A stretch of DNA of 64,000 nt from an uncultured Verrucomicrobiota bacterium. GTDB lineage: Bacteria; Verrucomicrobiota; Verrucomicrobiia; Limisphaerales; MWDV01. The stretch's first letter is position 1. Each line of letters begins with the position of its first letter. The stretch lies in NCBI GenBank assembly GCA_964548925.1, contig CAZJTM010000001.1, positions 23,826 through 87,825 of the forward strand, read 5' to 3'. Of the stretch, positions 3,126-52,130 are shown one piece after another. The notes below the pieces were generated by a model. It saw nothing but the letters and a program-made list of their open reading frames with translations. It ran no database searches and was not told the origin of the DNA. Position numbers and translations under genes: made by a program.

Positions 3126-3548
3126 TCAACGGCCTGCCTCTTTCGTGAAAGCGCTAACCGTCCGGATATCGGCCTCCTTGGCCGCGTCCATGACCTTCAC
3201 GATCTGACCAAAGGGCGCGCTCTTGTCGGCGCTGATGGCGAGCTTTACCTGCGGATTCTTGGAGGCGGCGTCAAGGAGTTGCTGCTTCAAGCCCTCGGCG
3301 GACACCGGACGGGCGTCCGCGCCAAAGCGCAAGTTCCCTTGCGGGTCCACCGTGACCACCATCGGCGCATCCTCCTGCGCGCCGCTCTTGAGCGCCTGTG
3401 AAGATTCCGGGAGGGCCAGCTTGAGCGCGGGTTGCTGTTTGAAGGCCGTGGTCACCATCAGGAAGATCAGCATCACAATCAGCACGTCAATCAGCGCGAC
3501 AATGATGACCGTAGGCGTCTGGCGGCGTTTGCGAACAAAGAAGCGCAT
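3126..3548 (-). CDS. exbD: Biopolymer transport protein ExbD/TolR
   Basis: MRFFVRKRRQTPTVIIVALIDVLIVMLIFLMV single TM helix followed by a periplasmic domain, with typical ExbD/TolR size. The internal ATG at 3548 is preferred over the longer track ORF (3614). Confidence 0.8.
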   Translation of the reverse strand: MRFFVRKRRQTPTVIIVALIDVLIVMLIFLMVTTAFKQQPALKLALPESSQALKSGAQEDAPMVVTVDPQGNLRFGADARPVSAEGLKQQLLDAASKNPQVKLAISADKSAPFGQIVKVMDAAKEADIRTVSAFTKEAGR

Positions 3549-4252: not shown

Positions 4253-5242
4253 TCAGTTGTAATAAAAGGTGAATGTCACAGTCCGCTTATTGCCGTTGAT
4301 CATGTGGCGCATCTCGGTTGGCCAGGGCGCGTACGGGGCGGGGTCCAACACCGCCATCTCGCACAGCAGGCTCAAGTCGAGCGCCACGGACGATTCCTGG
4401 ACCTTCATATCGGTGATTCGCCCGTCGCTGTTCAAGGCAAATTGCAGCACCACCTTGCCGCGCTGATAGCCGTCGTAGCGCTTGGCTTCGAGCAAATCAT
4501 ACCAACGCTCGCTGACCGCATCAACCAAGGCGCGGTCGTATCGCCCAATCGGCGATTCGCTGACATCCAAGCCCGCAAAGTCAAGGCGCCGCTTGACGCC
4601 ACCCTCCTGTTTCATCTTCTGGCCGGGCGGACTGTTCTCCTGCCGGGCTCGGGCCGCGGCGAGCGTTCGCACGCGCGGCCTCGCCTCGGTCCCATCAGTC
4701 TTGCGCGCTACGTCTTCAGCTTTGGCCAGGGTCAGATCGCCCGGAGGCTGCGCGGCTTTGGCCTTGGCCTCCTCTTGTGGCGGCGCCGATTCAACAGGTA
4801 ACGCTGGCTGCAGGCGGTCAAAAGGATTGCGCTGGGTGTCCTCCGTCTTGACCATCTGCTCCTGCGTACCGGCGATCTTGGGAATGTTGGTGTCTCGGTC
4901 GGCCTCCGGATTGGCGGCGCGCGAGCTTCTGTCGGAATAATACTTGGCGTCCGGCGGCGCGTCGGTTGTGGCTTGCGCGGGATTGACATGCACGAAGACC
5001 AGGGGCGGCTCCGGATTTGCCATCGCCTCCTTCTTCGCGGCGATGGCCTGCTCCAGGTTGCGGCTGAGTTTCAGCCAGTGCGGCAGCAGGACATCGGGCT
5101 GCCACTGGAGATGGCGCGCCAGTTTGTAAGCACCGAAGAGCAGCAGATGCACCGCCAGCGAAATCAGAAACGCCCGGAGCAACCGCTGTTTGTCATGGCG
5201 GCTCAGGCGGATCTGCAGACTGGTGGCGACGGCGTCAGCCAT
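4253..5242 (-). CDS. TonB/TolA-like energy-transducer protein (N-terminal TM anchor, Pro/Glu/Ala-rich linker, TonB_C-like C-terminus)
   Basis: N-terminal anchor LLRAFLISLAVHLLLFGAY, an acidic/proline-rich middle (PVESAPPQEEAKAKAAQPPG), and a C-terminal beta-alpha-beta-like GKVVLQFALNSDGRITDMKVQESS... It is adjacent to exbB and exbD on the same strand. Confidence 0.65.
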   Translation of the reverse strand: MADAVATSLQIRLSRHDKQRLLRAFLISLAVHLLLFGAYKLARHLQWQPDVLLPHWLKLSRNLEQAIAAKKEAMANPEPPLVFVHVNPAQATTDAPPDAKYYSDRSSRAANPEADRDTNIPKIAGTQEQMVKTEDTQRNPFDRLQPALPVESAPPQEEAKAKAAQPPGDLTLAKAEDVARKTDGTEARPRVRTLAAARARQENSPPGQKMKQEGGVKRRLDFAGLDVSESPIGRYDRALVDAVSERWYDLLEAKRYDGYQRGKVVLQFALNSDGRITDMKVQESSVALDLSLLCEMAVLDPAPYAPWPTEMRHMINGNKRTVTFTFYYN

Positions 5243-40539: not shown

Positions 40540-43500
40540 ATGAACCCGGAATCACCAAAGACACCTCGCGAAGCATTGGAGGCCCGCCTCACGGCGCTGC
40601 TGTTGAGCGAACTGTCCGCTGACGAAGCCGCGGCCGTCCGCCGCGCGCTGGCCCAAGACGCCGAACTCGCAAAGCTCCACGACCGTCTGCAAGCCACCAT
40701 CGGCCTTGTCCGCGAAACCGTCACGACCCAGGCCGAACCTGCTGCCGAGCAACCGCCGCTCAGGCTTTCCGATGAACGCCGGGAGCAGCTCCTAGCACAC
40801 TTCAAGACCGTTCCCCTGCTCCCAAAACTGGAGAATACCCAGAAGGTGAAGCGTTCGTGGCTCATGCCGATGAGCGTGGCTGCGTCGCTGGTGGCGCTGT
40901 TGGCCATCGCGGGCCTCTTGTTGAATCCTCCGCGCATAATGGAGGGCGTCGGGTCAGACATTGCTCAGGACGCCTATAGCCAGCAACGCCCATATACTGG
41001 CGTAGTCGCGGACACATCTCCGCCACCTGAAGTGGCTCCAGCCCCGCGCCGCAGTTCATCCATCGTGTTGCCGCCACTCAATGAAACCGCCGCTGGCGCA
41101 TCCGTTGCCGCCGCTCCTACTCCAGCGCCCGCGCAACGGGCAAGTTCAACCACTGTTTTATCGAGCGAAGGCAGATCCGAGCCGGAGGCACTGGTCAATG
41201 GCGTGGCGGCTGTGGCAGCCCCAGTTGATCCGGAGGCCTCGGCGTCCTCCAATGCGGATGACGGCGAAGCGACGGTCATGTTCCAACGCAGGTATGGATC
41301 CGCGACTGAACATGGTTCCCGGCCCAATCCGTCTGTTCAGAACCCGTCTGCCGTGGCACAAGAGCGGGCAGGCAGGGCAAAACTGGCCGAAGCCAGGCAC
41401 ACCAGTGAAGATATGGAAAGGGTGGGAGTCTCGGAACGCTCGGCACAGGCGCAGTCACAGGAAAACCGCTTTCTGGGGCGTTACGCTTACGATGCCAAAC
41501 CAGCGGGCAACGACGCCTTCGCCGCTGCCAAACCTGATTCGTGGTATTTCGACAATGACGGCAAAAGCCAGAGTGATTTCTCCGTTCGGCAGGAGGGCCG
41601 ATCCCCCGCGCTTTGGGACGACAACTCCGCGATCCGCGGGTTCTACAGTGTTTCTGATTCGCAGGACTTGTTTGCCAAGGAGGCTGGAGCCAACCGCAGT
41701 CAGGCCGGGCAGATTCAGGACTTGGCTGCCAAAGGCCGGGTTGAAGTGACCGTTGGCCAGACGGTCACGGGCCTGCCGACGCAAGCTGGGGCTGGCGTTG
41801 TTGTTCCGGCCGGCGTGGCTCACGATGGCTTCTATGGTGGTTACGCAGTGAACGCTCCCACGCCAGCGGCAGGCGCGATCATCGCCATCCCCGATCCCGG
41901 ACCAGCTTCCTTCGAAACACCCGGCAAGGCGGCCGCCGACAAGACTTTCACTCTGGGTGACACGCCTGAACTCGGGAGACAATTCTACCGGCTTGCGGAA
42001 GGCGGTGGGGGCGGTGTCGGCGGTGCTCAAATTCAACCTCCACGCCCCTCCGCCTCGCCCGCACCGCAGGCAGATTCCGGTGTTGCTGGCGCCGCAACTG
42101 CCGCGACCAAACGGGTCGAGCTGGTCCCGTTTGCCCCCCAACTCCCGGCTCCCACCCTGAAAGGCACGCCGGAAGACCTGCCCAAGGGACCGAACCTCGA
42201 ACCACTGGGAACAAAACCCGACGGCACGGTCGTCCTTGGCCGGCCTGAGGCGGCGTCAGCGGCACCAGACCCTGAGCTGTATGCCGCTTTCCGTCGCAGG
42301 TACGGAGTCGCGTCCGCCGACAAACCGCTCGCGGAGAGTGTCGCCAAACAACCCGTGTCTGCCGCCAAAGCGCCTGCGCTTGAGGGAACAATGCCCAACT
42401 CGAGCGTCGCCGCTGTGGAGTCGCCTGCCTTGGGTGAGGCAAAGGAATCCCCGTCCAGGGCCGGCCGTGGCATCACGCCGCTGGCCAGCGCGAGGAGCGG
42501 AAACGAACCGACACTCAGCGCTGGAAACCTGAACCTCCAATGGGCGGACAAGCATCACCAAAAGCAAGGCGGCGTTTCTTTGACGGAGTCGGAACGGAAG
42601 CAAGTCGCTGAACTGCGGGAACGGTATCTCGCCAATGGCCGGGAACCCACCGAAGGCGGACGCATCGCCCCCGCAGAGGAGGTTCAGAGCATGGATGTTG
42701 ATGCAGCCACCGTGACGACCACCGCCGGGAAGGGCGTCGGCGGCGTTGCGGTGGATGAAGCCACCCGTGGACAGCGGTCCGCCATCGCCCTGCCAACGAC
42801 AGAAACGGGCGTCGCTTTGGGGGTCGAGCGCGCGAAGACCGAGGAGTTGGCGCGGGCGCGGATTGTGCCGGAGCGCCGGTTGGCCGGCGGTGCAAAGGCC
42901 GAACCAGCGGCATCCCGAAGCGCCAAGCCCACTCAGGGCAGCTCAATAAACTACGAGGTGGCCACGCTTGCCAAGCTCAAGGAGGTTTCGCAGCAAATCT
43001 GGACTGACTATGACTCCGATGGTTTCCCGGATGCCTTTGGAACCGTAAAAAAGCTCGTGCCAACGCAGGCGTCTTCCGCAAGCGACATTGACGCACCGCC
43101 CGTTCGCAAGGCTTCCACCAACGCCCCGATTCCGCAGCCCGAAGTCCAGACGAGCGACAACGCCTTCTCCACCTTCTCGCTCAACGTCAGCGACGTGGCA
43201 TTCAAGCTCGCTGCGGCCAGCCTGGAGAAGGGCCAGATGCCGGACGCGGCCTCTGTGCGCGCCGAGGAGTTCATCAACGCCTTCGATTACCGCGATCCCG
43301 AAGCGCCGCCGGGTGTGCCGATCGCGTTCGCGTGGGAGCGCGCGCGGTATCCGTTCGCGCACAACCGCGATCTGCTGCGGTTCTCGCTCAAGACTGCCGC
43401 GGCGGGCCGGCAGGCGGGGCGTCCGCTGAACCTCGTGCTGCTGCTCGACAATTCCGGCTCGATGGAACGCGCCGATCGGGTGCAGATCATCCGCGAGGCG

Positions 43501-44466
43501 TTGCGTGTGCTCGCCGGGCAGTTGCAGCCGCAGGACAAGCTCAGCGTCATCACTTTCGCCCGCACACCGCGCCTGTGGGTGGACGGCGTGGCGGGCGACA
43601 AGTCGGGCGAGGTGCTGGAACAAGTCAGCGGCCTCACGCCGCAGGGCGGCACGAATCTGGAAGAGGCGATGAACCTCGCCTACGCCACGGCGCTGCGGCA
43701 TTACCTTGCCGGCGGCATCAACCGTGTGGTGCTGCTCACCGACGGCGCGGCGAACCTCGGCAACGTCGAGCCCGAACCCCTCAAGCAGAAGGTCGAGGCG
43801 CATCGCAAACAGGGCATCGCGCTGGATTGCTTCGGCATCGGCTGGGAGGGGTTCAACGATGATTTGCTCGAAGTCCTCTCGCGCAACGGCGATGGCCGTT
43901 ACGGGTTCATCAACTCACCGGACGAAGCCGCCAACGAGTTCGCCGGCCAGCTCGCGGGCGCGCTCAAGGTCGCGGCGTCGGACGTGAAGGTGCAGGTGGA
44001 GTTCAACCCGAAGCGCGTCACGGCGTATCGGCAGATCGGCTACGCCAAACATCAGCTCACGAAGGAGCAGTTCCGCGACAACACCGTGGACGCCGCTGAA
44101 ATCGCCGCGCAGGAAGCTGGCAACGCGCTTTACACCGTGGAGGTGAATCCCGCTGGCGAGGGCCCACTCTGCATCGTGCGCTGCCGGTTCAAGATCCCCG
44201 GCACGACGGATTATCGCGAGCACGAGTGGGCCGTGCCTTACACCGGCAACGCCGTGTCGCTGGAGCAAGCCAGTCCGGCCATGCGCCTTGCCGCGAGTGC
44301 CAGCGCGTTTGCCGAGTGGCTGGTGGTGAGCCCGTTTGCCGCTGAAGTCACGCCGGATGCGTTACTCGGCTACTTGAACGGCGTGTCGGAAACCTATGGC
44401 GCCGATGCGCGCCCGAAGAAGCTGGAGTGGATGATCCGTCAGGCGAAGAGCATTGGAGGGAAATGA
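40540..44466 (+). CDS. Membrane-anchored anti-sigma-like protein with a long low-complexity spacer and a C-terminal YfbK-type von Willebrand factor A module
   Basis: N-terminal helix LEARLTALLLSELSADEAAAVRRALAQDAELAKLHDRL (anti-sigma style) and TM helix WLMPMSVAASLVALLAIAGLLL. About 700 aa of Ala/Pro/Gly/Ser-rich sequence follow. C-terminal part: DNAFSTFSLNVSDVAF...EEFINAFDY, then VWA with MIDAS LLLDNSGSM (DNSGS = 43447-43461), and ...TDGAANLG. Confidence 0.85.
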   Translation: MNPESPKTPREALEARLTALLLSELSADEAAAVRRALAQDAELAKLHDRLQATIGLVRETVTTQAEPAAEQPPLRLSDERREQLLAHFKTVPLLPKLENTQKVKRSWLMPMSVAASLVALLAIAGLLLNPPRIMEGVGSDIAQDAYSQQRPYTGVVADTSPPPEVAPAPRRSSSIVLPPLNETAAGASVAAAPTPAPAQRASSTTVLSSEGRSEPEALVNGVAAVAAPVDPEASASSNADDGEATVMFQRRYGSATEHGSRPNPSVQNPSAVAQERAGRAKLAEARHTSEDMERVGVSERSAQAQSQENRFLGRYAYDAKPAGNDAFAAAKPDSWYFDNDGKSQSDFSVRQEGRSPALWDDNSAIRGFYSVSDSQDLFAKEAGANRSQAGQIQDLAAKGRVEVTVGQTVTGLPTQAGAGVVVPAGVAHDGFYGGYAVNAPTPAAGAIIAIPDPGPASFETPGKAAADKTFTLGDTPELGRQFYRLAEGGGGGVGGAQIQPPRPSASPAPQADSGVAGAATAATKRVELVPFAPQLPAPTLKGTPEDLPKGPNLEPLGTKPDGTVVLGRPEAASAAPDPELYAAFRRRYGVASADKPLAESVAKQPVSAAKAPALEGTMPNSSVAAVESPALGEAKESPSRAGRGITPLASARSGNEPTLSAGNLNLQWADKHHQKQGGVSLTESERKQVAELRERYLANGREPTEGGRIAPAEEVQSMDVDAATVTTTAGKGVGGVAVDEATRGQRSAIALPTTETGVALGVERAKTEELARARIVPERRLAGGAKAEPAASRSAKPTQGSSINYEVATLAKLKEVSQQIWTDYDSDGFPDAFGTVKKLVPTQASSASDIDAPPVRKASTNAPIPQPEVQTSDNAFSTFSLNVSDVAFKLAAASLEKGQMPDAASVRAEEFINAFDYRDPEAPPGVPIAFAWERARYPFAHNRDLLRFSLKTAAAGRQAGRPLNLVLLLDNSGSMERADRVQIIREALRVLAGQLQPQDKLSVITFARTPRLWVDGVAGDKSGEVLEQVSGLTPQGGTNLEEAMNLAYATALRHYLAGGINRVVLLTDGAANLGNVEPEPLKQKVEAHRKQGIALDCFGIGWEGFNDDLLEVLSRNGDGRYGFINSPDEAANEFAGQLAGALKVAASDVKVQVEFNPKRVTAYRQIGYAKHQLTKEQFRDNTVDAAEIAAQEAGNALYTVEVNPAGEGPLCIVRCRFKIPGTTDYREHEWAVPYTGNAVSLEQASPAMRLAASASAFAEWLVVSPFAAEVTPDALLGYLNGVSETYGADARPKKLEWMIRQAKSIGGK

Positions 44467-44478
44467 AAGCCGGAATCA

Positions 44479-44507
44479 AACCGCAGAGACGCGACAGGCG
44501 CAGAGAA
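44479..44507. repeat. Family-E repeat arm (AACCGCAGAGACGCGACAGGCGCAGAGAA), single copy 3' of the GxxExxY cassette
   Basis: One mismatch to the reverse complement of the arm at 45513-45541. Confidence 0.85.
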
Positions 44508-44555
44508 GGCACAGGCAGAACCTCCGCATACATCGCGCCGTTGCGGCTGAGCCCA

Positions 44556-45434
44556 TCAGCCGACCGCTGGCTTCGCGGATTTGCGAGAGAGAACAAGTCG
44601 GCGGATGCCGTGAGTGAGCCGGAGAGCATTGAAGTTGATCAGCAAGCCGAGCGGCCAGCCGCCGAGCCGGAGCTGGCTCAACACCTCGGCCTCGTGGACC
44701 GCGCGAACTTCAGCGAGTGCGCGTGGGTGGACCACGATGCGGCCCGCCACCAGCAGCTCCACCTCGTCCGGCTCTGGCAGGACGATGCCCTTGTAGCTCA
44801 GCGGGAGCGATTGTTTGCGCACAAACGGAACGCCGCGCAGATGCAATTCGTGGCAGAGACAGATCTCGTACGTGGACGGCAACAGTCCCGGGCCCAACTC
44901 CCGGAAGACCTCGGCGGCCGCGGCGAGCACTTGATCGGCCACGGCTTCCGTTTCGGCATCGCCGCAGTTCGCGGCGCATGCAGGGGCCGCACACTCGGAT
45001 CCAGCAGCGATCACTCTCTGCGTTTGTTGCATCTCTGCTGTTTCTCTCCCATCCTCCTCAAACCCCACCACCAACCGTTCAAGCCCGTCCTTCAACACCG
45101 CGGCATTGAAGTTGAGCAACAGGGCCAGTTTCCAGCCTCCCAGCTTCAGATAGGTAAGGACCTGCGCCCGATGCACCGGGTTCAACAACTCCACCGACTT
45201 CACTTCCAACACAACGGCCTGCTCAACGAGTACGTCGAGCCGATAACCACACTCCAACTTTACCCCCTTGTAGATGACGGGCACAGGCCTTTGAACCTGA
45301 TGCGCCAAGCCGCGGAGCGAAAGCTCATGAGCGAGGGCGTGTTCGTAAGCCGCCTCCGCTTTGCCGGGACCGAGTTCCCGGTGAACCTCAATGCCAGCGC
45401 CAATGATCTCGTGTGTGAGTTCGTTGGGTTTCAT
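44556..45434 (-). CDS. Tandem fusion of two GxxExxY-family (PD-(D/E)XK nuclease-fold) units
   Basis: Unit 1: IIGAGIEVHRELGPGKAEAAYEHALAHEL...YRLDVLVEQAVVLEVKSV. Unit 2: AAAAEVFRELGPGLLPSTYEICLCHEL...DEVELLVAGRIVVHPRAL (motif residues substituted). Single 292-aa ORF. The linker RETAEMQQTQR is encoded by a repeat arm (45014-45042). Confidence 0.8.
   Translation of the reverse strand: MKPNELTHEIIGAGIEVHRELGPGKAEAAYEHALAHELSLRGLAHQVQRPVPVIYKGVKLECGYRLDVLVEQAVVLEVKSVELLNPVHRAQVLTYLKLGGWKLALLLNFNAAVLKDGLERLVVGFEEDGRETAEMQQTQRVIAAGSECAAPACAANCGDAETEAVADQVLAAAAEVFRELGPGLLPSTYEICLCHELHLRGVPFVRKQSLPLSYKGIVLPEPDEVELLVAGRIVVHPRALAEVRAVHEAEVLSQLRLGGWPLGLLINFNALRLTHGIRRLVLSRKSAKPAVG
45014..45042. repeat. 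Family-E repeat arm (reverse orientation) forming the linker between the two GxxExxY units
   Basis: ctctctgcgtttgttgcatctctgctgtt matches 24 of 29 positions of ttctctgcgtctgtcgcgtctctgcggtt (45513-45541). Confidence 0.7.
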
Positions 45435-45467
45435 GGGCGCAGACTAGCTCCAGGGCAGGGCTTCGTA

Positions 45468-45541
45468 AACCGCAGAGACGCGATGAACGCGGAGAAGATG
45501 AGGGGTCGTGTTTTCTCTGCGTCTGTCGCGTCTCTGCGGTT
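45468..45541. repeat. Family-E palindromic hairpin element, intergenic (5' of the GxxExxY cassette, 28 nt before the giant ORF)
   Basis: aaccgcagagacgcgatgaacgcggagaa (45468-45496) and ttctctgcgtctgtcgcgtctctgcggtt (45513-45541). 29-nt inverted arms with a 16-nt loop. Confidence 0.9.
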
Positions 45542-45569
45542 GAAGGGCTGATCACATCACCAGCATGTT

Positions 45570-48500
45570 ATGAAAACTCGTCTCGCTGTCTTCCTGAGTT
45601 ACCTCGCGCTGATCGCTCGCGCGGTTGCAGGAGCGGAACCACCTGCTTCGACAAACCAACAGCTCCCCGCCGTCACGCTGCAAGACTTCAAACTGGTCGG
45701 CGACCTCAAGGATGATCGGGCGTCCTTCACGCTCACGGCCAACGCCAAAGTGGAGAACTCCAAAGGCGGCTCACTAGAACTGCTCTCCGGCACCGTTGCG
45801 TTGACGGGTGTGAACACAAATCCCAAGTGGCGCGTGCGCGTCGAGCAAGGGCGGTTCGTGCTGACATTCGACCGCAGCGGCACGTTCCCGATCCAAATCA
45901 AGTTCGACGCCGCCGTGCGCCAAAGCGACGGTTGGAGCGCAGTGGATTTTCGTATTGCGCCGAGCGCGCTTCAGCCGGTCACGTTGCAAGGCTTGGCCGA
46001 GGATACACAGTTCCAGTTCGTCGGCGCGGCGCGGCCCGAGCGCAAGGGCAGCGACTTCGTGAGCTATTTGCCGTCTGACGGCTCGGTGAAGCTTTCGTGG
46101 AAGGCCGCGCGCACTGAAGCCGAGGGCAAACTGTTCTACGCCGCGGAAATGCTGTCGCAAATCAGCGTCAGCCCCGGGCTCATGCGGCAGGTGGCGCTGC
46201 TCGACGGCAAGATCATGCAAGGCGAGATGACGCGGCTCGCGCTGCTCCTGCGGGGTGCGGGCGAAGTCACCCGGGTGCAGGGCGAGGCGGTATTGGCGTG
46301 GAAAGTGGAGAACCTCCACACTCTGCAAAGTGTGGAAGCACCCCCTCCGGCTTCTTCCGAGCGGCGACTCATTGTCCAATTCAACCAGCCACAGAAAGCC
46401 GGCTTTGCACTCCAGGTGCAGATGCAGACCCCGCTGGACGCTTTTCCGCAGTCAGTGGAGGCGCTGCAAGTCCACCCCGAAGGCGCCACGCGCTTTGCCG
46501 GCTGCTACCGCGTTGTGAACGACGGCGCGGTGCGGCTCGAAGTCGCGCAAGCCAGCGGGCTCTCGCAGATTTCGCCGGAGCAATTCCCCGAGACCGACGC
46601 GACCAAGGCAGCCTTCCGCGCGGGCGGCAGCCAGCGGTTTGCCTACCGCTTTTCCGGGGCAGATCACGCGCTGCGGATTCAGGCGGACCAAGTCCAACCC
46701 GAGGTCGGCGTCTCGCAGGTGCTGGCCTACCATCTCGGCGAGAATGAACAGGCGATTGATTCCGAATTCGAGTTGGACATCCGCGAAGCGCCTTTGCGCG
46801 AGCTGCTGCTTCGCGTGCCGAAGGGCTACGCCATTGCGCGCTTGAACGCCTCGGGGCTGAGCGATTATTTCCTGAGCGAACCCCTCACCCCGTCCCTCTC
46901 CCCATCGGATGCGGAGAGGGTGGCCGAAGGCCGGGTGAGGGGCGACTTCGACCAAAATGAGCTCCGCCTCGTGTTTGGCCAACCCATCTCCGGCAGGCAG
47001 GTCGTTCAACTGCGACTGGAGCGCAATGCCGCCTTGGGCCAAGCCACTTGGACGCTGCCACGCCTCGAAGTCAGCCAGGCGAAATCCGTGCGCGGCCACA
47101 TCGCGGTGTCGGCGGAGGCGGGCTTTCGCCTGACCGCGGAGCGCACGCACGCCTTGACGGAAATCGCCACCGCGTTCTTCCCGCGCAAGGTGGCCGGCAT
47201 TCAATCCGCTTTCCGCCTGAGCGAGGCGGCGTGGGACGCCACGATGCGCGTGGAGCGGTTGCCGCAGACCGTGCAAGCCGACGCGCTGCATCTTTTCTCC
47301 ATCGGCGAAGGCATCGCTTACGGCAGCAGCCTGATCAACTACGTCATCTCCGGCGCGCCGGTGGCGCTGTTCCGTGTCGAACTGTCCGAGGAATACCCCA
47401 GCGTCGAGTTCACCGGGAAGGACATCCGCGGTTACCAGAGGACCACCAACGGCTACGTGGTGCAGTTGCACACGCCGGTCTCCGGCGCTTACACGCTGCT
47501 GGCGACCTACGAGCGCCCCTTCAAACGGCAGGGCGAGACGCTCGCGTTCACCGGCGCCCGCCCGCTGGACGCGCAATCCGAGCAGGGCCACACGCTGGTC
47601 ATCAGCGCGTATCAGTTCGACGTGAAGCGGGCGCAGGTTTCACCGAACCTGCTGCCGCTCGAAACCGGCGAGGTGCCGCCGGAATACCGGCTGTTTTTTG
47701 ACGCGCCCATCCTCGCGGCATTCCGCTACACGTCACGTCCATTCGCTCTGCAGCTTGCCCTCAGTCCGCTGGCACAAGGCGATTCCCTGAGCCAGATCGT
47801 GGACCGCGCGTCACTGGTCACGCGCATCTCGAAGGAAGGCCAGGTGCTCACGGACGCGAGCTACCTCGTAAAAAGCCGCGGCAATCCGAACTTCCGCCTC
47901 ACGCTGCCCGCGGGGACGGAGCTTTGGTCCGCCACGGTGAACGGGGCATCGGTCGTGCCGGTGAAGGACAAGGACGCGAATCTCATCCCGCTGCCGCAGC
48001 GCGCGGATCCGAACGCCGTGCTGAAGCTCGATCTGAAGCTCGCCGCGAAATCGGCCAACGCGTCGCGGGTGAAAGTCGCAGCCCCGATTGTCAATGCGCC
48101 GGTCATGCTGGCGGAATGGAAACTGTCGCCCGATGCGGGCCAACGTCTGGTCTATCGCTCCGGGTCGCTCACGCCGGCGGGCGGCGTGCCGGATGTGTCG
48201 GGCTTTGCCGGCTTGACGCGCTTGTTCACCGGCCGGCATCAAAGCGAAGCGCTGGTAGCATTGCTGGCGGGCTTGGCGTTACTGGCGGTGGGGAGCATCG
48301 TCTGGCGGTGGACGTGCCAGGACGGGGTGGTGAAGTTCAGCGCTCGATACTTCTGCGGCGTGACCCTGGGCCTGGTTGCGCTGGGATTGTCGGTCGTGGC
48401 GTTCATCAATCTCGCCGATCTGGCCGAGCGACAACAATGTTACCCGCCAAACGACGTGACTTTCCTGGCGCCGGTGCAACAGCCAAACAGCGAGCTGAGC

Positions 48501-51500
48501 GTGGAGGTTGCGAACGCGGCTGATCAAACCTCGGCGGGTGAGTACTTCGGATACGGTTGGCCGGCACTGTTGGGGATTGCGGTGTGGGCCTTTGGCTGGG
48601 TTTCCGTCGAGCAACGCGTGAAGACGGCGAGTTGGCTGCTCGGCTGGACGCTGGCGGCGTGGGCGGCGCTCCGCTGGCCCAATGGTGCGCCGTGGTTCAT
48701 CGCGGTCATCGGCGCGTTCCTCGCGCTGCACGTCGTGCTGCCTGGCTTGCGACGGCTCCTGTCGCTGCCGAAAGAAATGACAGCGAGAATCGGAACCGCG
48801 CCCGCTGCCGCCTCGGTCGCGCTGCTAACTCTGCTTCCCCTCTGCGTTTGTCGCGCCTCTGCGGTTCCACCGGACGGGGCGCCACCGGGTTCAACCGCAG
48901 AGACGCGACAGATGCAGAGGAAAGAGCCGCCAGCCGCGGCGCTCGCCGAGAAGGTTGCGCAGCAGATTCGCGTCGAAGACCAGTTCGCTCTCGCCACCGC
49001 GAAGATTCGCTGGAACGCCGAGAAAGGTCAGACACTGCCGCTGCTCTGCGATCCCGCCGTTTTGACTCACATCAGTCTTCCGGCCAAAGCGCTCAAGCTC
49101 GTGTCCTCGCAGGCCGGCGAACGGCGGGTGCAGGCGTTGCGCGCGGAACGAAGCGGGACATTCGATGTGGAGGTACAATACCAGTTGCCGGTGGCCAAGA
49201 AAGACAACGAGCGCGGCCTCGCGCTGCCGACCCACGCGGGCCTCGTCAACGAACTCGAACTCACGCTCGTCAATCTCGACGTGGACGTGTTCTCGCCGCG
49301 GGCCGTGACCCTCAAGCGCGAGGCGGCGGGCGGCAACACGATTGCGAAGGTGGTGCTCGCACCGGGCGAGACGTGGATCGGCTGGAGACCGCGCAGCCGG
49401 GACGTGAAGAGCGAGAAGCCAGTGTTCTACGCGGAACTGCACCAACTCTACGTGCCCTCGGCGGGAGTGATCGAGGGCGTGCATGTTGCAGCCCTCCGGC
49501 CGGCGCAAGGAGAGTTGGGCGAGTTGGTGTTCGACGTTCCCAAGGGCGCGACGGTGACAGATGTGACCGACACGGCTGACACGGTCGGAAACTCGAAATC
49601 CGAAACTCGAAATGCGAAGTCGGCCGTGGCCCTCTGGCGCTTTGATCCCGACACACGGAAGCTGCGCGTGAATCTGAGCCAGCCGCAGTCGCGTCCGTTC
49701 ACACTCGTGATTCGCTCGCAAGTCGCCACCGGGCCGCTGCCGTTTGAGCAAGCGGTCGGCTTGGTTGCCGTCGAGGGCACGGCGAGTCAGATCGGCTTGC
49801 TGGCCGTGGCGACGGGGAATGAAGTCCAGCTCGACACCGTGGGTGCGGAAGCGTTTTCGCCAATCAACCTGGAAGACTTCCCGGGCGCGGTCGCGCAACG
49901 ACTCGCCCCGCAGATTCCGGGACTCACCGTGCGTCGCGCCTTCCGCTACGCGGACCCGAAGGCCACCGCCGCTGTAAAGGCGTCGCCCGTCGAGCCGGAC
50001 GTGCGCGTCGAGACGCAGGACACCCTCTCGCTGGGCGAAGATCGAATTGTCCTCGCGGCGAACCTGACGGTGGACATCACGCGCGCGGGGATTTTCCGAC
50101 TGAGTTTCGTCCTGCCGGCGGGCCTGGACGTGGAGGCCATCAGCGGGCCGGCGTTGAGCCATTGGACGGAAGCAAACAGCGACGCCACGCGCATCATCAC
50201 ACTCCATCTGCGCGGCAAAACGATCGGGCAACAGACCTTCGCCATCAGCCTCGCCGGGCCGGGGATGAAGACGGCAAACGGTTGGGCGGTGCCCCAACTC
50301 GTCTTGCGCGAGGCAAGCAAGCAGCGGGGCACGCTGCTGGTGGTGCCGGAGCAAGGATTGCGTTTGCAGGTGGCCGCGCGCGACGGCGTCACGCAGCTTG
50401 ACCCGCAGAAGTCCGGCATCCGGCAAAAGGGCGTGCTGGCGTTCCGCGTGTTGCAGACGCCGTGGAAGCTTGCTCTCGATCTCGAACAGGTGGACCCGTG
50501 GATTCAGGTGACGAGCCTGCAACACGCGACGGCGAGCGAGGCGCAGGTGAAGATCACCGCGAATCTGCAATACCAGATCGAGAACACGGGCCTGAAGGCG
50601 TTTCGCGTCTGGCTGCCAGCGAATGCCGAGGGCGTGCGTTTCCAGGGCGAGCAGGTTTCCGATTTCCTGCCGGAGGCCGGCGCGGTCACGAACGGCTTGC
50701 AGTTGTGGGAAGTGAAACTGCACCGCCGCGTGATTGGCCAGTATCTGCTGCAAGCGAGTTACCAGACGCTCCTGCCGGATCAAGCATCGGAGACGACCCT
50801 GCGCGGTGTGCAGGCGGCGGAGGTGAATCTCCAGCGCGGCTTTGTGACAGTGCAGGCGGGCGGGCGATTGGAAGTGAGCGTCGCATCCACGCCCGCCGCG
50901 CTTCAGCCCACCGAGTGGCAGAGCATTCCCCGCGCGCTCCAGCAGGATTGGTCGGCGGTTTCGGCCACTCTCGCCTATCGCCTCGTTGAGCCGGCGTTCC
51001 AACTCCCGCTGAAACTCGGCCGTTACGAAGCCGCCAAACTCCTGCCCGCGCGCGTCCATGGCGTCACGTTCACCTCGGTGATTTCCGACGACGGCGTCAT
51101 GCTTACCCAAGTGCGACTGGAGATGATGCCCGGCGACAAGCGGCTGCTCCATGTGACTTTGCCAAAGGACGCGAAGTTCTGGTTTGCGTTCGTCAATCAG
51201 AACGGCGTCTGGCCCTGGCGCGAACAGGATCGGATTCTGATTCCGTTGGAGCAGCAATCCCGCGGCGGCAAACCGGTGCCCGTCGAGGTGTTCTACAGCA
51301 GCCAGATCGGCAAGTCCGGTTCGAGCGCGCTGGATTTGCAACTCGCCGCGCCGAAGTTCGATCTGCCGCTGGAGAACATCGCATGGCGGGTTTTTCTCAA
51401 CGAGAAATGGCAGCTTGCGAACTGGGCGGGCACCCTTCAGTTGCAGGAGGAGCAAATTGTCCCACGCGCCGCCGCCGTGGACCTGCAAACCTATTTGCAG

Positions 51501-52130
51501 AGCGAAGCCCTCGGGCAGCGCGCGAAGACCCAGGAAGCCGAGGAGATGCTCGCGATGGGAAACACGCTGCTGGAAAAGGGCGATCCGCAGCAGGCCCGCC
51601 GCGCGTTCCAAGCCGCCTACGGCTTGAGCCAGGGCGACGACGCATTCAACGAGGACGCGCGGGTGCAGCTCAACAACCTGAAGCTCCAACAGGCGCTCGT
51701 GGGCTTGAACGTGCGCCAAGCCGCCGCGACGGGCGAGGCAGCGACCCCGGCGGCGAAGCTCCGCGACACCCGGGGCCGCAAGGACGTCGGCTACACACAA
51801 CAGGACGCCAAGGCGATCATTGACCGCAACAGCGCCGAGGAGAACGCCGCCTTCATGCGACTGGCGCAGCGGTTGGTGCAACAACAGGACGCCGCCGTGA
51901 GCAGTCCCGCCGCCCTGCGCGCCGCGATTCCCGAGCACGGCCGTTTGCTCACATTCAAGCGTGCGGTGGTCGTGGACAAGGAAGCGGACCTGCACATTGG
52001 ACTCCAAGCCAGTGCCGTCCGACCCGTCTCGTTGAGCGCGCGGATGCTGATCCTGGCGGGCACAGTGCTGGTGTTGTTTGGGTTTGGGTGGTTGGGGCGA
52101 GGCTTTATACGCGCGAGGGCCTCAGTGTAA
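45570..52130 (+). CDS. Giant (2186 aa) envelope protein of unknown function: signal peptide, two large beta-rich halves separated by a cluster of about 6 TM helices, a C-terminal TPR-like/coiled region and a terminal TM anchor
   Basis: Signal peptide MKTRLAVFLSYLALIARAVAGA. TM cluster at about 48250-48855 (ALVALLAGLALLAVGSIVWRW, FCGVTLGLVALGLSVVAFINL, WPALLGIAVWAFGWVSV, ASWLLGWTLAAWAALRW, PWFIAVIGAFLALHVVLPGL, AASVALLTLLPLCV). TPR-like AEEMLAMGNTLLEKGDPQQARRAFQAAYGL and final TM helix MLILAGTVLVLFGFGWLG. Uninterrupted ORF with consistent codon bias. Confidence 0.85.
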   Translation: MKTRLAVFLSYLALIARAVAGAEPPASTNQQLPAVTLQDFKLVGDLKDDRASFTLTANAKVENSKGGSLELLSGTVALTGVNTNPKWRVRVEQGRFVLTFDRSGTFPIQIKFDAAVRQSDGWSAVDFRIAPSALQPVTLQGLAEDTQFQFVGAARPERKGSDFVSYLPSDGSVKLSWKAARTEAEGKLFYAAEMLSQISVSPGLMRQVALLDGKIMQGEMTRLALLLRGAGEVTRVQGEAVLAWKVENLHTLQSVEAPPPASSERRLIVQFNQPQKAGFALQVQMQTPLDAFPQSVEALQVHPEGATRFAGCYRVVNDGAVRLEVAQASGLSQISPEQFPETDATKAAFRAGGSQRFAYRFSGADHALRIQADQVQPEVGVSQVLAYHLGENEQAIDSEFELDIREAPLRELLLRVPKGYAIARLNASGLSDYFLSEPLTPSLSPSDAERVAEGRVRGDFDQNELRLVFGQPISGRQVVQLRLERNAALGQATWTLPRLEVSQAKSVRGHIAVSAEAGFRLTAERTHALTEIATAFFPRKVAGIQSAFRLSEAAWDATMRVERLPQTVQADALHLFSIGEGIAYGSSLINYVISGAPVALFRVELSEEYPSVEFTGKDIRGYQRTTNGYVVQLHTPVSGAYTLLATYERPFKRQGETLAFTGARPLDAQSEQGHTLVISAYQFDVKRAQVSPNLLPLETGEVPPEYRLFFDAPILAAFRYTSRPFALQLALSPLAQGDSLSQIVDRASLVTRISKEGQVLTDASYLVKSRGNPNFRLTLPAGTELWSATVNGASVVPVKDKDANLIPLPQRADPNAVLKLDLKLAAKSANASRVKVAAPIVNAPVMLAEWKLSPDAGQRLVYRSGSLTPAGGVPDVSGFAGLTRLFTGRHQSEALVALLAGLALLAVGSIVWRWTCQDGVVKFSARYFCGVTLGLVALGLSVVAFINLADLAERQQCYPPNDVTFLAPVQQPNSELSVEVANAADQTSAGEYFGYGWPALLGIAVWAFGWVSVEQRVKTASWLLGWTLAAWAALRWPNGAPWFIAVIGAFLALHVVLPGLRRLLSLPKEMTARIGTAPAAASVALLTLLPLCVCRASAVPPDGAPPGSTAETRQMQRKEPPAAALAEKVAQQIRVEDQFALATAKIRWNAEKGQTLPLLCDPAVLTHISLPAKALKLVSSQAGERRVQALRAERSGTFDVEVQYQLPVAKKDNERGLALPTHAGLVNELELTLVNLDVDVFSPRAVTLKREAAGGNTIAKVVLAPGETWIGWRPRSRDVKSEKPVFYAELHQLYVPSAGVIEGVHVAALRPAQGELGELVFDVPKGATVTDVTDTADTVGNSKSETRNAKSAVALWRFDPDTRKLRVNLSQPQSRPFTLVIRSQVATGPLPFEQAVGLVAVEGTASQIGLLAVATGNEVQLDTVGAEAFSPINLEDFPGAVAQRLAPQIPGLTVRRAFRYADPKATAAVKASPVEPDVRVETQDTLSLGEDRIVLAANLTVDITRAGIFRLSFVLPAGLDVEAISGPALSHWTEANSDATRIITLHLRGKTIGQQTFAISLAGPGMKTANGWAVPQLVLREASKQRGTLLVVPEQGLRLQVAARDGVTQLDPQKSGIRQKGVLAFRVLQTPWKLALDLEQVDPWIQVTSLQHATASEAQVKITANLQYQIENTGLKAFRVWLPANAEGVRFQGEQVSDFLPEAGAVTNGLQLWEVKLHRRVIGQYLLQASYQTLLPDQASETTLRGVQAAEVNLQRGFVTVQAGGRLEVSVASTPAALQPTEWQSIPRALQQDWSAVSATLAYRLVEPAFQLPLKLGRYEAAKLLPARVHGVTFTSVISDDGVMLTQVRLEMMPGDKRLLHVTLPKDAKFWFAFVNQNGVWPWREQDRILIPLEQQSRGGKPVPVEVFYSSQIGKSGSSALDLQLAAPKFDLPLENIAWRVFLNEKWQLANWAGTLQLQEEQIVPRAAAVDLQTYLQSEALGQRAKTQEAEEMLAMGNTLLEKGDPQQARRAFQAAYGLSQGDDAFNEDARVQLNNLKLQQALVGLNVRQAAATGEAATPAAKLRDTRGRKDVGYTQQDAKAIIDRNSAEENAAFMRLAQRLVQQQDAAVSSPAALRAAIPEHGRLLTFKRAVVVDKEADLHIGLQASAVRPVSLSARMLILAGTVLVLFGFGWLGRGFIRARASV
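48839..48920. repeat. Family-E palindromic hairpin element inside the giant CDS
   Basis: cctctgcgtttgtcgcgcctctgcggtt (48839-48866) and aaccgcagagacgcgacagatgcagagg (48893-48920). Translated as ...PLCVCRASAVPPDGAPPGSTAETRQMQRK... Confidence 0.88.
49587..49621. repeat. Heptanucleotide tandem array (5 units, CGAAA(C/T)N type) inside the giant CDS
   Basis: ggaaact|cgaaatc|cgaaact|cgaaatg|cgaagtc. Translated as GNSKSETRNAKS. Confidence 0.85.

Follow-up and report, generated by a model that had tools for sequence, protein, structure and literature searches.

REP/REPIN-RAYT systems (repetitive extragenic palindromes [REPs], their paired form [REPINs], and REP-associated tyrosine transposases [RAYTs]; together, REPtrons) of Proteobacteria consist of short palindromic repeats, mostly intergenic and with many gene-free copies, and an enzyme gene flanked by inverted copies or hairpins of its own dispersed repeat family. 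Here, we describe a system of the same layout in a 64-kb stretch of DNA (64,000 nt, "the window") from a Verrucomicrobial metagenome-assembled genome (MAG) and in related loci (numbered L001 and upward). Its gene belongs to the GxxExxY (PDDEXK_3) family, and its repeat is a palindrome made of two inverted "arms"; a gene together with its arms is called a cassette. The likeness to REPIN-RAYT extends to paralogs that have different repeat families in one genome (here, Gemmatirosa) and to a conserved 5' end, which is HACC in the arms and GTAG in REPs. In contrast, the enzyme here is a PD-(D/E)XK nuclease of ~125 aa and not a Y1 (HUH) transposase of the IS200/IS605 type; the arm consists of three tandem 8- to 12-nt units, whereas a REP is one imperfect palindrome; and most of the genes lie inside a split hairpin, with many paralogs per genome and a spread over >10 phyla. 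Among the arm-flanked intervals examined, none contained a Y1 transposase, and since this enzyme defines REP/RAYT, the cassette is not a member of that family. By analogy, the cassette system would work like REP/RAYT in every respect that sequence can test, and the parallel drawn in an earlier note on this DNA agrees with the counts: gene-free hairpins are many and flanked genes are few.

Other described elements share part of this design. Miniature inverted-repeat transposable elements (MITEs) and their autonomous partners (Correia elements, insertion sequence-derived MITEs) also have coding and non-coding versions with the same terminal inverted repeats, as in locus L133 and in the window cassette versus solo hairpins, and dispersed copies at which assemblies break; unlike them, the system described here lacks a DDE or serine/tyrosine recombinase and showed no target-site duplication, and its arms can lie inside a longer repeat. 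Homing endonuclease genes, free-standing or intron-borne, are likewise small nuclease genes set precisely in a recurring context, with presence/absence polymorphism and non-disruptive insertion, and I-Ssp6803I is a PD-(D/E)XK homing endonuclease; here, however, the context is a multicopy palindromic repeat instead of a conserved host gene or intron, and empty sites lack the repeat. Rickettsia palindromic elements recall the gene-free hairpin at 48838–48921 of the window, which is read in frame inside a coding gene, but they differ in sequence family and taxa, and the repeat studied here has an associated protein family. Integron cassettes with their attC sites share a short, apparently promoterless open reading frame (ORF) within imperfect inverted repeats, mostly co-oriented with its neighbors, whereas the repeats here stand on both sides as triple direct units without the RYYYAAC/GTTRRRY core organization; no integrase and no cassette arrays were seen in the loci, where the insertions are single and lie between housekeeping genes.

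A survey of PD-(D/E)XK proteins files PDDEXK_3/GxxExxY under "unknown" function (PMC3424549). The searchable literature on GxxExxY, PDDEXK_3, and PF13366 gives the function of the family as unknown or mentions the family in passing, with no link to a repeat, and searches for arm strings returned primers only. Rfam, PADLOC, PHROGs, and the searchable literature yielded no description of the enzyme/hairpin partnership. With moderate confidence, we read the window cassette as one case of a widespread, REPIN/RAYT-like partnership between GxxExxY nucleases and triple-unit palindromic repeats. We observed an association of genes with arms, a pairing of paralogs with arm families, insertion/deletion polymorphism, conserved catalytic residues, and a non-disruptive wedging of cassettes between genes.

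Results

Most Surveyed GxxExxY Genes Are Flanked by Inverted Arms

To quantify the association, we retrieved 80 metagenomic loci by protein patterns only, 69 of which had enough flanking sequence, and aligned the upstream flank of each gene to the reverse complement of its downstream flank (score >= 26; arms within 170 nt). Of the 69 GxxExxY loci, 56 had inverted arms on both sides, whereas among 61 control ORFs taken from these loci only 1 did (Mann-Whitney p = 5e-16). Together with the finished isolate genomes described below, this answers in the affirmative the question raised by the earlier note, whether arms are enriched near GxxExxY genes and occur there in inverted pairs. When all upstream arms were compared with all downstream arms, the best partner was the arm of the same locus in 28 of 56 cases, and this arm ranked third or better in 41 of 56; within a cassette, one arm thus varies in step with the other. 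Among arm pairs spaced 200 to 600 nt apart, 41 of 45 enclosed a GxxExxY gene and the other 4 enclosed non-coding DNA. In ~3.3 Mb, we saw no other protein family carried between arms; other small families that might share the arms, such as the four-helix-bundle "23S IVS" (intervening sequence) proteins, were considered and none lay between arms in this sample.

The aligned arms begin with (T/C/A)ACC and continue with three RCNRAG units, each followed by a 2- to 3-nt spacer. They thus amount to about three tandem purine-rich units of 8 to 9 nt with 3.6% T, and the unit types include CACAGAG, CGCAGAG, CACGAAG, CAGTGAG, CACCGAG, CGCAAAG, and others. In 70% of the arms, no stop triplet occurs in any of the six frames (28% expected), which explains how arms can be read through in the inter-unit linker of the window protein and inside the 2186-aa gene next to it. 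Among 120 homologues, many carry arm-derived terminal peptides (e.g., MNRRDAE, HHRDTENTE, FTAETQRAQR, and ...FSATSASLR).

Cassettes are wedged into short intergenic gaps, with a median of ~6 nt from stop codon to arm and ~16 nt from the arm to the next start codon, and neighbors are mostly co-directional (35 of 48 upstream, 37 of 50 downstream). In the finished genome of Bacteroides finegoldii, radA is followed by TTCACCACAGAGG...gene...CTCTGTGGTGAA and then by a gene for a FAD-dependent protein; the finished Bernardetia genome has the same arm-gene-arm layout, and in Sphingomonas a cassette with the upstream arm only lies between fabD and fabG. Locus L133 holds a gene cassette (282–847) and, 1.2 kb away, a gene-free element (2030–2310), which have ~95 and 90 nt of their two ends in common, inner hairpins included, and differ in their interiors. 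On sequence grounds, this resembles an autonomous/non-autonomous pair or an exchange of modules.

Some loci depart from the common plan. In a subfamily of cassettes from AT-rich loci (L133, L147, L150, L191, and L193), each arm is followed on its inner side by a further local stem-loop (e.g., ttttcctttctgttgagaggacagaaaggaaaa), which is kept in the gene-free derivative in L133. An arrangement with the ACC ends toward the gene ("configuration B") was considered as a second general layout and rejected, as 8 of its 10 cases are one old orthologous insertion. This insertion separates the gene for the large subunit of methylmalonyl-CoA mutase from a separate gene for the B12-binding domain (L134, L135, L145, L149, L159, L166, L181, and L183; 8 of the 80 loci); its arms stand in reversed order, with the ACC/GGT ends toward the gene, and have diverged between loci but are still complementary. 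Six such loci were inspected closely, and in most of them the purine-rich arm directly adjoins the B12-domain start codon.

Three Paralogs on One Replicon Adjoin Three Hairpin Families

We also took a census of a complete replicon, plasmid 1 of Gemmatirosa kalamazoonensis KBS708 (NZ_CP007129.1; 1,106,233 nt). It carries three GxxExxY paralogs, 32 to 59% identical in pairs, and each adjoins hairpins of one plan, with three tandem units per arm, built from different units:

437,174–437,650: paralog 1, GYGFLEQVY; a CGCGGAT x3 hairpin lies 23 nt past its stop codon; 5 arms of this family on the replicon.
993.7–994.2 kb (L330, 567–977): paralog 2, GPGLLESAY; between two AACCGCAGAGGACGCAGAGG-type (CGCAGAG-type) hairpins; 28 arms.
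1,092,269–1,092,904: paralog 3, GFGFVEHLY; between two GGACTGAAGAAG x3 hairpins; 37 arms and 16 dispersed hairpins.

The chance of all three adjacencies is ~2e-5. Covariation of arm sequence with protein clade, as anticipated by the earlier note, was therefore seen as distinct paralogs with distinct repeat families on this single replicon; among close relatives from metagenomes, the correlation is weak but significant (r = 0.22).

The Window Cassette Encodes Two Fused GxxExxY Units

In the window, the cassette and its arms comprise the following features:

44556–45434, minus strand: two-unit GxxExxY (PDDEXK_3) ORF, 292 aa; PF13366 twice, TIGR04256 in each half.
45051–45425, minus strand: unit 1, aa 4–128; catalytic and signature residues intact.
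44577–44942, minus strand: unit 2, aa 165–286; apparently dead by its residues, yet conserved.
44479–44512, plus strand: outer left arm, AACCGCAGAG... on the plus strand; stands downstream of unit 2 when read along the gene.
45014–45042, minus strand: internal arm, diverged from the consensus at 5 positions; stands upstream of unit 2.
45468–45541, no strand assigned: complete gene-free hairpin directly upstream of unit 1, made of arms 45468–45496 (plus) and 45513–45541 (minus) with a 16-nt loop.
48838–48921, no strand assigned: gene-free reversed arm pair, complement arm first, with the GGTT/AACC ends facing a 26-nt spacer.

The 292-aa ORF consists of two GxxExxY units joined head to tail, as the earlier note had recognized. 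PDDEXK_3 (PF13366) is the sole Pfam family that it matches, in two stretches (222 bits; cut-off, 22), and TIGR04256 scores 136 bits on unit 1 and 98 bits on unit 2 (cut-off, 35); the unit borders were set with a profile of 32 family members. Unit 1 has the signature GKAEAAY (G24-K-A-E27-A-A-Y30) together with D67 and E77-V-K79, and in an alignment of 32 sequences (A1) the family-invariant columns G22, G24, E27, Y30, D67, E77, and K79 are all present in it, which agrees with the motif and D...E-x-K triad read there earlier. At the corresponding positions, unit 2 carries GLLPSTY and VVHPRA, with D replaced by E and ExK by HPR, so that motif and triad are complete in only one of the two domains, and unit 2 is predicted to be catalytically dead.

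The view of the earlier note that unit 2 looks decayed did not hold. Its substitutions are kept in the orthologues in L063 and L064 (GPGLLPSAY and V-K/H-P); across the three orthologues, nonsynonymous divergence (dN) in unit 2 is 0.25 to 0.33 with synonymous divergence (dS) saturated, and a single dN/dS could be computed, 0.155, compared to 0.075 for unit 1. By these patterns, unit 2 is under purifying selection and is no decaying copy. Moreover, the top matches among 1.84 billion representatives are themselves two-unit proteins of 257 to 295 aa from many distinct clusters. In those examined, unit 1 retains the E of GxxExxY in all except P0306, while in unit 2 P, R, A, Q, K, H, or G replaces it; replacement of this E by P, R, A, Q, or K was seen in ~25 distant two-unit cluster representatives. 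The tandem "active plus dead" form is thus an old, selected, and widespread subfamily. We infer that the two-unit protein is an asymmetric pseudo-dimer with one catalytic center, which would nick and not cut both strands.

An AlphaFold2 model of unit 1 (pLDDT, 92) has a PD-(D/E)XK-like alpha-alpha-beta-beta-beta-alpha-beta topology. The best Foldseek matches in the PDB are all PD-(D/E)XK nucleases (Cas4 SSO0001, lambda exonuclease, RecE, the AdnAB nuclease domain, and Bax1) and are weak (E >= 3e-3, TM <= 0.56), and a sequence search of the PDB returned no meaningful relative (RelE, E ~0.2). The protein had no match in PADLOC or PHROGs. Rfam 15, searched at permissive thresholds with the window region and 18 cassette loci, gave only sub-threshold miRNA-like hairpin matches. 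The family as a whole is very large, with 34,442 cluster representatives at E <= 1e-3 (clusters at 50% identity).

Arms of the Window Cassette

The window arms follow the 29-nt pattern AACCGCAGAGACGCGANNNNCGCNGAGAA, also written AACCGCAGAGACGCGA-N4-CGC-N-GAGAA, a variant in which the middle unit is degenerate. Six copies were found, all within 44479–48921, and a hidden Markov model (HMM) built from 69 arms detected no further copy in the 64 kb. Three copies match the pattern without mismatch (44479–44507, plus; 45468–45496, plus; and 45513–45541, minus) and two with 2 to 3 mismatches (48838–48866, minus; and 48893–48921, plus), whereas the chance expectation is 0.00. Four of the six copies had been noticed before at these places, as had the gene-free pair inside the adjacent gene. 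The internal arm, the most diverged of those four with its 5 mismatches, is 86% identical to 45514–45541 and has a well-preserved counterpart at the same place in L064. The linker between the two units, TAEMQQTQR, is the in-frame translation of this arm (45042 to 45014), just as first read. The outer arms (44479–44512 and 45508–45541) are 91% complementary over 34 nt.

Read in gene sense, the order is hairpin (45541 to 45468), unit 1, arm (45042 to 45014), unit 2, and complementary arm (44507 to 44479). The claim that each unit is bracketed by opposed arms calls for a refinement, as the topology differs between the two. Only unit 2 lies in a pair with its AACC ends outward, between a purine-rich arm and its complement; unit 1 has a complete hairpin on one side and the first arm of unit 2 on the other, and here the AACC ends point toward the gene. 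Both gene-free hairpins are predicted to fold stably as DNA: 45462–45547 at -29.7 kcal/mol (z = -7.5 vs. shuffled controls) and 48832–48927 at -34.2 kcal/mol (z = -6.8).

The Window Cassette Is an Insertion or Deletion Unit

The cassette is set between two genes on the opposite strand:

40540–44466, plus strand: left neighbor, a 1308-aa VWA/YfbK_C protein (Pfam); left edge of the insertion site.
45570–52130, plus strand: right neighbor, the giant gene, 2186 aa with no Pfam domain; right edge of the insertion site and host of the in-frame hairpin.

The outer left arm starts 12 nt past the VWA stop codon, and the hairpin 45468–45541 ends 28 nt short of the start of the giant gene. In orthologous loci, the VWA/YfbK_C gene lies downstream of a sigma-70 extracytoplasmic function gene. 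We compared filled sites (the window, L001–L009, L063, and L064) with empty ones (L324, L325, L327, and L328). In L063 and L064, the cassette occupies the same junction of VWA and giant gene, with a fused protein 60 to 66% identical. In contrast, the junction of the four empty relatives, whose giant protein is 65 to 78% identical over its N-terminal part, is 80 to 220 nt long and has neither gene nor arm. The gene and its arms were thus gained or lost as one unit, and the window cassette is an insertion or deletion unit, in keeping with the earlier view that it had landed between these two genes. The earlier note had also looked to cassette-free loci for the insertion boundaries: gene and arms proved to be absent together in all four, but the junctions are too diverged to align or to reveal a target-site duplication. 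No direct repeat lies outside the arms, and the TT...AA beyond HACC/GGTD is palindromic, not direct. In L324–L328, the VWA and giant-gene orthologues are called as several shorter ORFs, whose lengths of 400 to 760 aa should not be taken for real gene boundaries; the split calls probably reflect frameshift errors.

At the empty junction of L327 (~4490–4500), GAACCGCA directly follows the VWA stop and consists of a G and the 7 bases with which the arm opens (AACCGCA); it could be an excision scar or remnant, a target, or chance (about 1%).

The identical 292-aa protein is encoded on nine public contigs (L001–L009, including GCA_036567685.1), and the source is a Verrucomicrobial MAG. Six of the nine assemblies break at or near hairpin 45468–45541: four end ~105 to 110 nt upstream of the GxxExxY start, i.e., at the outer edge of the hairpin, and two more at ~186 and ~240 nt, as is expected of assemblies at a multicopy repeat. 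Contigs from short-read metagenomes break systematically at hairpins of this family.

The arm pair 48838–48921 is translated in frame within the 2186-aa ORF (LPLCVCRASAV...TAETRQMQRK). It sits in a hypervariable linker after a hydrophobic segment, where the orthologues have unrelated inserts of differing lengths and L324 has what appears to be another repeat-derived peptide (SADLQSAVSQISNLQSG...RLQIGDTADYKSALP); in-frame insertion of repeats seems to concentrate in this linker. A second, unrelated palindrome at 46884–46943 (cccctcacc...ggagaggg...ggtgagggg) is also in frame in the giant ORF, as LTPSLSPSDAERVAEGRVRG, and the window holds no other copy of it.

Most Arms Occur without the Gene

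Surveys that started from the arm gave a different picture. A scan for the arm pattern (21 specified bases, one genome per species) returned at least 114 stretches totaling 801 kb, and the listed matches came from Verrucomicrobiota, Planctomycetota, Chloroflexota, Acidobacteriota, Gemmatimonadota, Binatia, Bacteroidota, Burkholderiales, and others. Among these matches, GxxExxY genes occur at two loci only, L063 and L064, both orthologues of the window cassette. The remaining listed matches are gene-free: short hairpins with 17- to 30-nt loops, a long form with its arms inside a ~190-nt repeat, and a few reversed pairs like 48838/48893. Genes between separate hairpins are ordinary housekeeping genes (permease, VWA/BatA, glycosyltransferase, sigma-54 activator, and HAD hydrolase). 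Since the arm-centered samples are nearly all gene-free, most arms are not beside a GxxExxY gene, and the association is strong in the gene-to-arm direction only. Specificity of arms for the surroundings of GxxExxY genes, on which the earlier note had staked its reading, was not borne out: solo hairpins very often lie beside unrelated genes.

In arm-selected viral contigs, there is often a hairpin per gene junction. In the IMG/VR contigs L222, L264, and L247, a TTCACC...GGTGAA hairpin marks nearly every intergenic junction, and no GxxExxY protein is encoded; CACAGAG, CACGAAG, and CGCGAAG units occur together on one contig, and L247 has a nested hairpin at 3126–3280. A 128-nt "long-form" hairpin with the window arm type was seen in L015, L019, L021, L028, L072, L076, L086, L096, L105, L111, and L115, mostly in the MAG CAYIIH01 (Verrucomicrobiota). 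It is embedded in a ~190-nt repeat that has its own outer inverted ends (CTATGCAG...CTGCATAG) and a mean pairwise identity of ~75%.

Discussion

The partnership of GxxExxY nucleases with triple-unit palindromic repeats suggests a mechanism in which the nuclease would bind or cut the hairpin cognate to it and in this way spread the hairpins and/or itself. The small PD-(D/E)XK nuclease would act as a dimer, with the fused form as an asymmetric pseudo-dimer that has a single active site. It would recognize the repeated units, or the hairpin or cruciform, of its own arm family and cut there; host repair or recombination would then copy or move arm-bounded DNA, and the outcome would be many gene-free hairpins and a few gene-bearing copies inside or between arms. 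A broader version, which we put forward only tentatively and think somewhat more apt to fail than to hold, is that GxxExxY/PDDEXK_3 proteins are the enzymes of previously unrecognized, pan-bacterial palindromic mobile or selfish elements, that each clade recognizes a triple-unit hairpin family of its own and drives the spread of that family and of itself, and that the tandem form is a single-site nickase.

Several observations weigh against the partnership. Viral contigs chosen by the commoner arm type, TTCACC-RCNGAG x3, gave 422 arm hits and 0 GxxExxY ORFs in 1.04 Mb, and 2.9 million viral contigs yielded one partial relative of the protein. Plasmid 2 of the Gemmatirosa strain (1.04 Mb) carries at least 39 matches to the CGCAGAG-type hairpin but lacks a GxxExxY gene, and paralog 2 on plasmid 1, flanked by its CGCAGAG-type hairpins, is frameshifted in the finished sequence, likely as a pseudogene or through a sequencing error. 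In the close clade, arm similarity follows protein similarity only weakly (Mantel test, p ~0.003–0.006). The arms embedded in the ~190-nt repeat of one Verrucomicrobial genome are not the ends of that element, no target-site duplication was seen, with the available empty junctions too diverged to align, and a 125-aa nuclease has no obvious strand-transfer activity. The searchable literature holds no biochemistry for any member of the family.

It is also conceivable, though in our judgment unlikely, that the gene is a selfish gene of the homing type. The hairpins would then exist independently, as REP-like terminators, structural elements, or repeats moved by other means; the nuclease would cut empty hairpins, and repair would copy the gene into the loop through arm homology, so that the arms would be the target and not the ends of the element. 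Such a gene would account for the tight filling of the loop, with arm-to-start and stop-to-arm distances mostly of 0 to 30 nt, for the frame in L133 that holds either the gene or unrelated DNA, and for arm heptamers that barely track protein clade among close relatives. Large paralog families and the number of cluster representatives would suit it, as would the huge excess of hairpins without linked genes. However, the empty orthologous junctions of the window cassette lack any hairpin, which argues that gene and arms came or went together; genes on the Gemmatirosa replicon lie between complete hairpins and not in a loop; and no pair of filled site and empty hairpin was found at one orthologous position.

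We give still less weight to the idea that hairpins are spread by an unlinked enzyme or by another route, with GxxExxY genes as passengers of unrelated function (e.g., defense, repair, or RNA processing), and hold it to be quite improbable. Solo hairpins do vastly outnumber the genes, sit beside housekeeping genes, and persist on viral contigs without the gene, all of which a passive cargo would explain. Yet no other gene family was found between arms in ~3.3 Mb, three paralogs go with three arm families on one replicon, which a generic hot spot would not give, no transposase-like gene was seen flanked by arms in the intervals examined, and the protein is absent from PADLOC and PHROGs.

Alternatively, the cassette may be a module of expression at the RNA level, which we regard as very unlikely. 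Pairing between the arms in the mRNA would leave the ORF as a loop, like an rRNA intervening sequence, the purine-rich arm would serve as the ribosome-binding site, and the stem would provide RNase III processing, insulation, or translational control, letting a promoterless gene live inside host operons. Consistent with this, 73% of neighbors are co-directional and cassettes occupy short gaps; the purine-rich arm, which contains GGAG/AGAGG, ends 0 to 13 nt ahead of the start codon in 19 of 49 (~40%) cassettes, and its contact with the B12-domain start codon fits the same role. Pairing in mRNA would favor G.U over A.C mismatches, however, and the sense strand has no such excess (63 vs. 75, p = 0.35), so the idea of an RNA stem is not supported. 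Arm pairing is only ~84% Watson-Crick, with many mismatches being transversions at the variable unit position; the window cassette is antisense to both of its neighbors; and the dispersed gene-free hairpins and paralog-specific arm families would be left unexplained. Judged by their sequences, the arms resemble a selected RNA stem less than they do a pair of inverted sets, each of three protein-binding units.

Finally, a chance juxtaposition or assembly artefact, i.e., an ordinary intergenic repeat near a duplicated gene, has in its favor only that the source is a MAG and is refuted by 0 expected matches, nine independent assemblies of the locus, 56 of 69 unrelated loci, and finished isolate genomes.

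With the partnership, PDDEXK_3/GxxExxY, a very large orphan family, gains a first testable candidate substrate, its own flanking hairpin. Conversely, a class of hairpins in Verrucomicrobiota, Planctomycetota, Acidobacteriota, Chloroflexota, Gemmatimonadota, Bacteroidota, Proteobacteria, and viral contigs, repeats that break assemblies and insert in frame into genes, gains a candidate enzyme. If the nuclease is specific for sequence or structure, with clade-specific targets, the family would amount to a natural library of hairpin nucleases that are small and programmable by choice, and to a second example of the co-evolution of a domesticated or selfish repeat with its enzyme. If the broader version is true, the REPIN/RAYT lifestyle would have been invented a second time, independently, with a restriction-endonuclease fold in place of the Y1 transposase.

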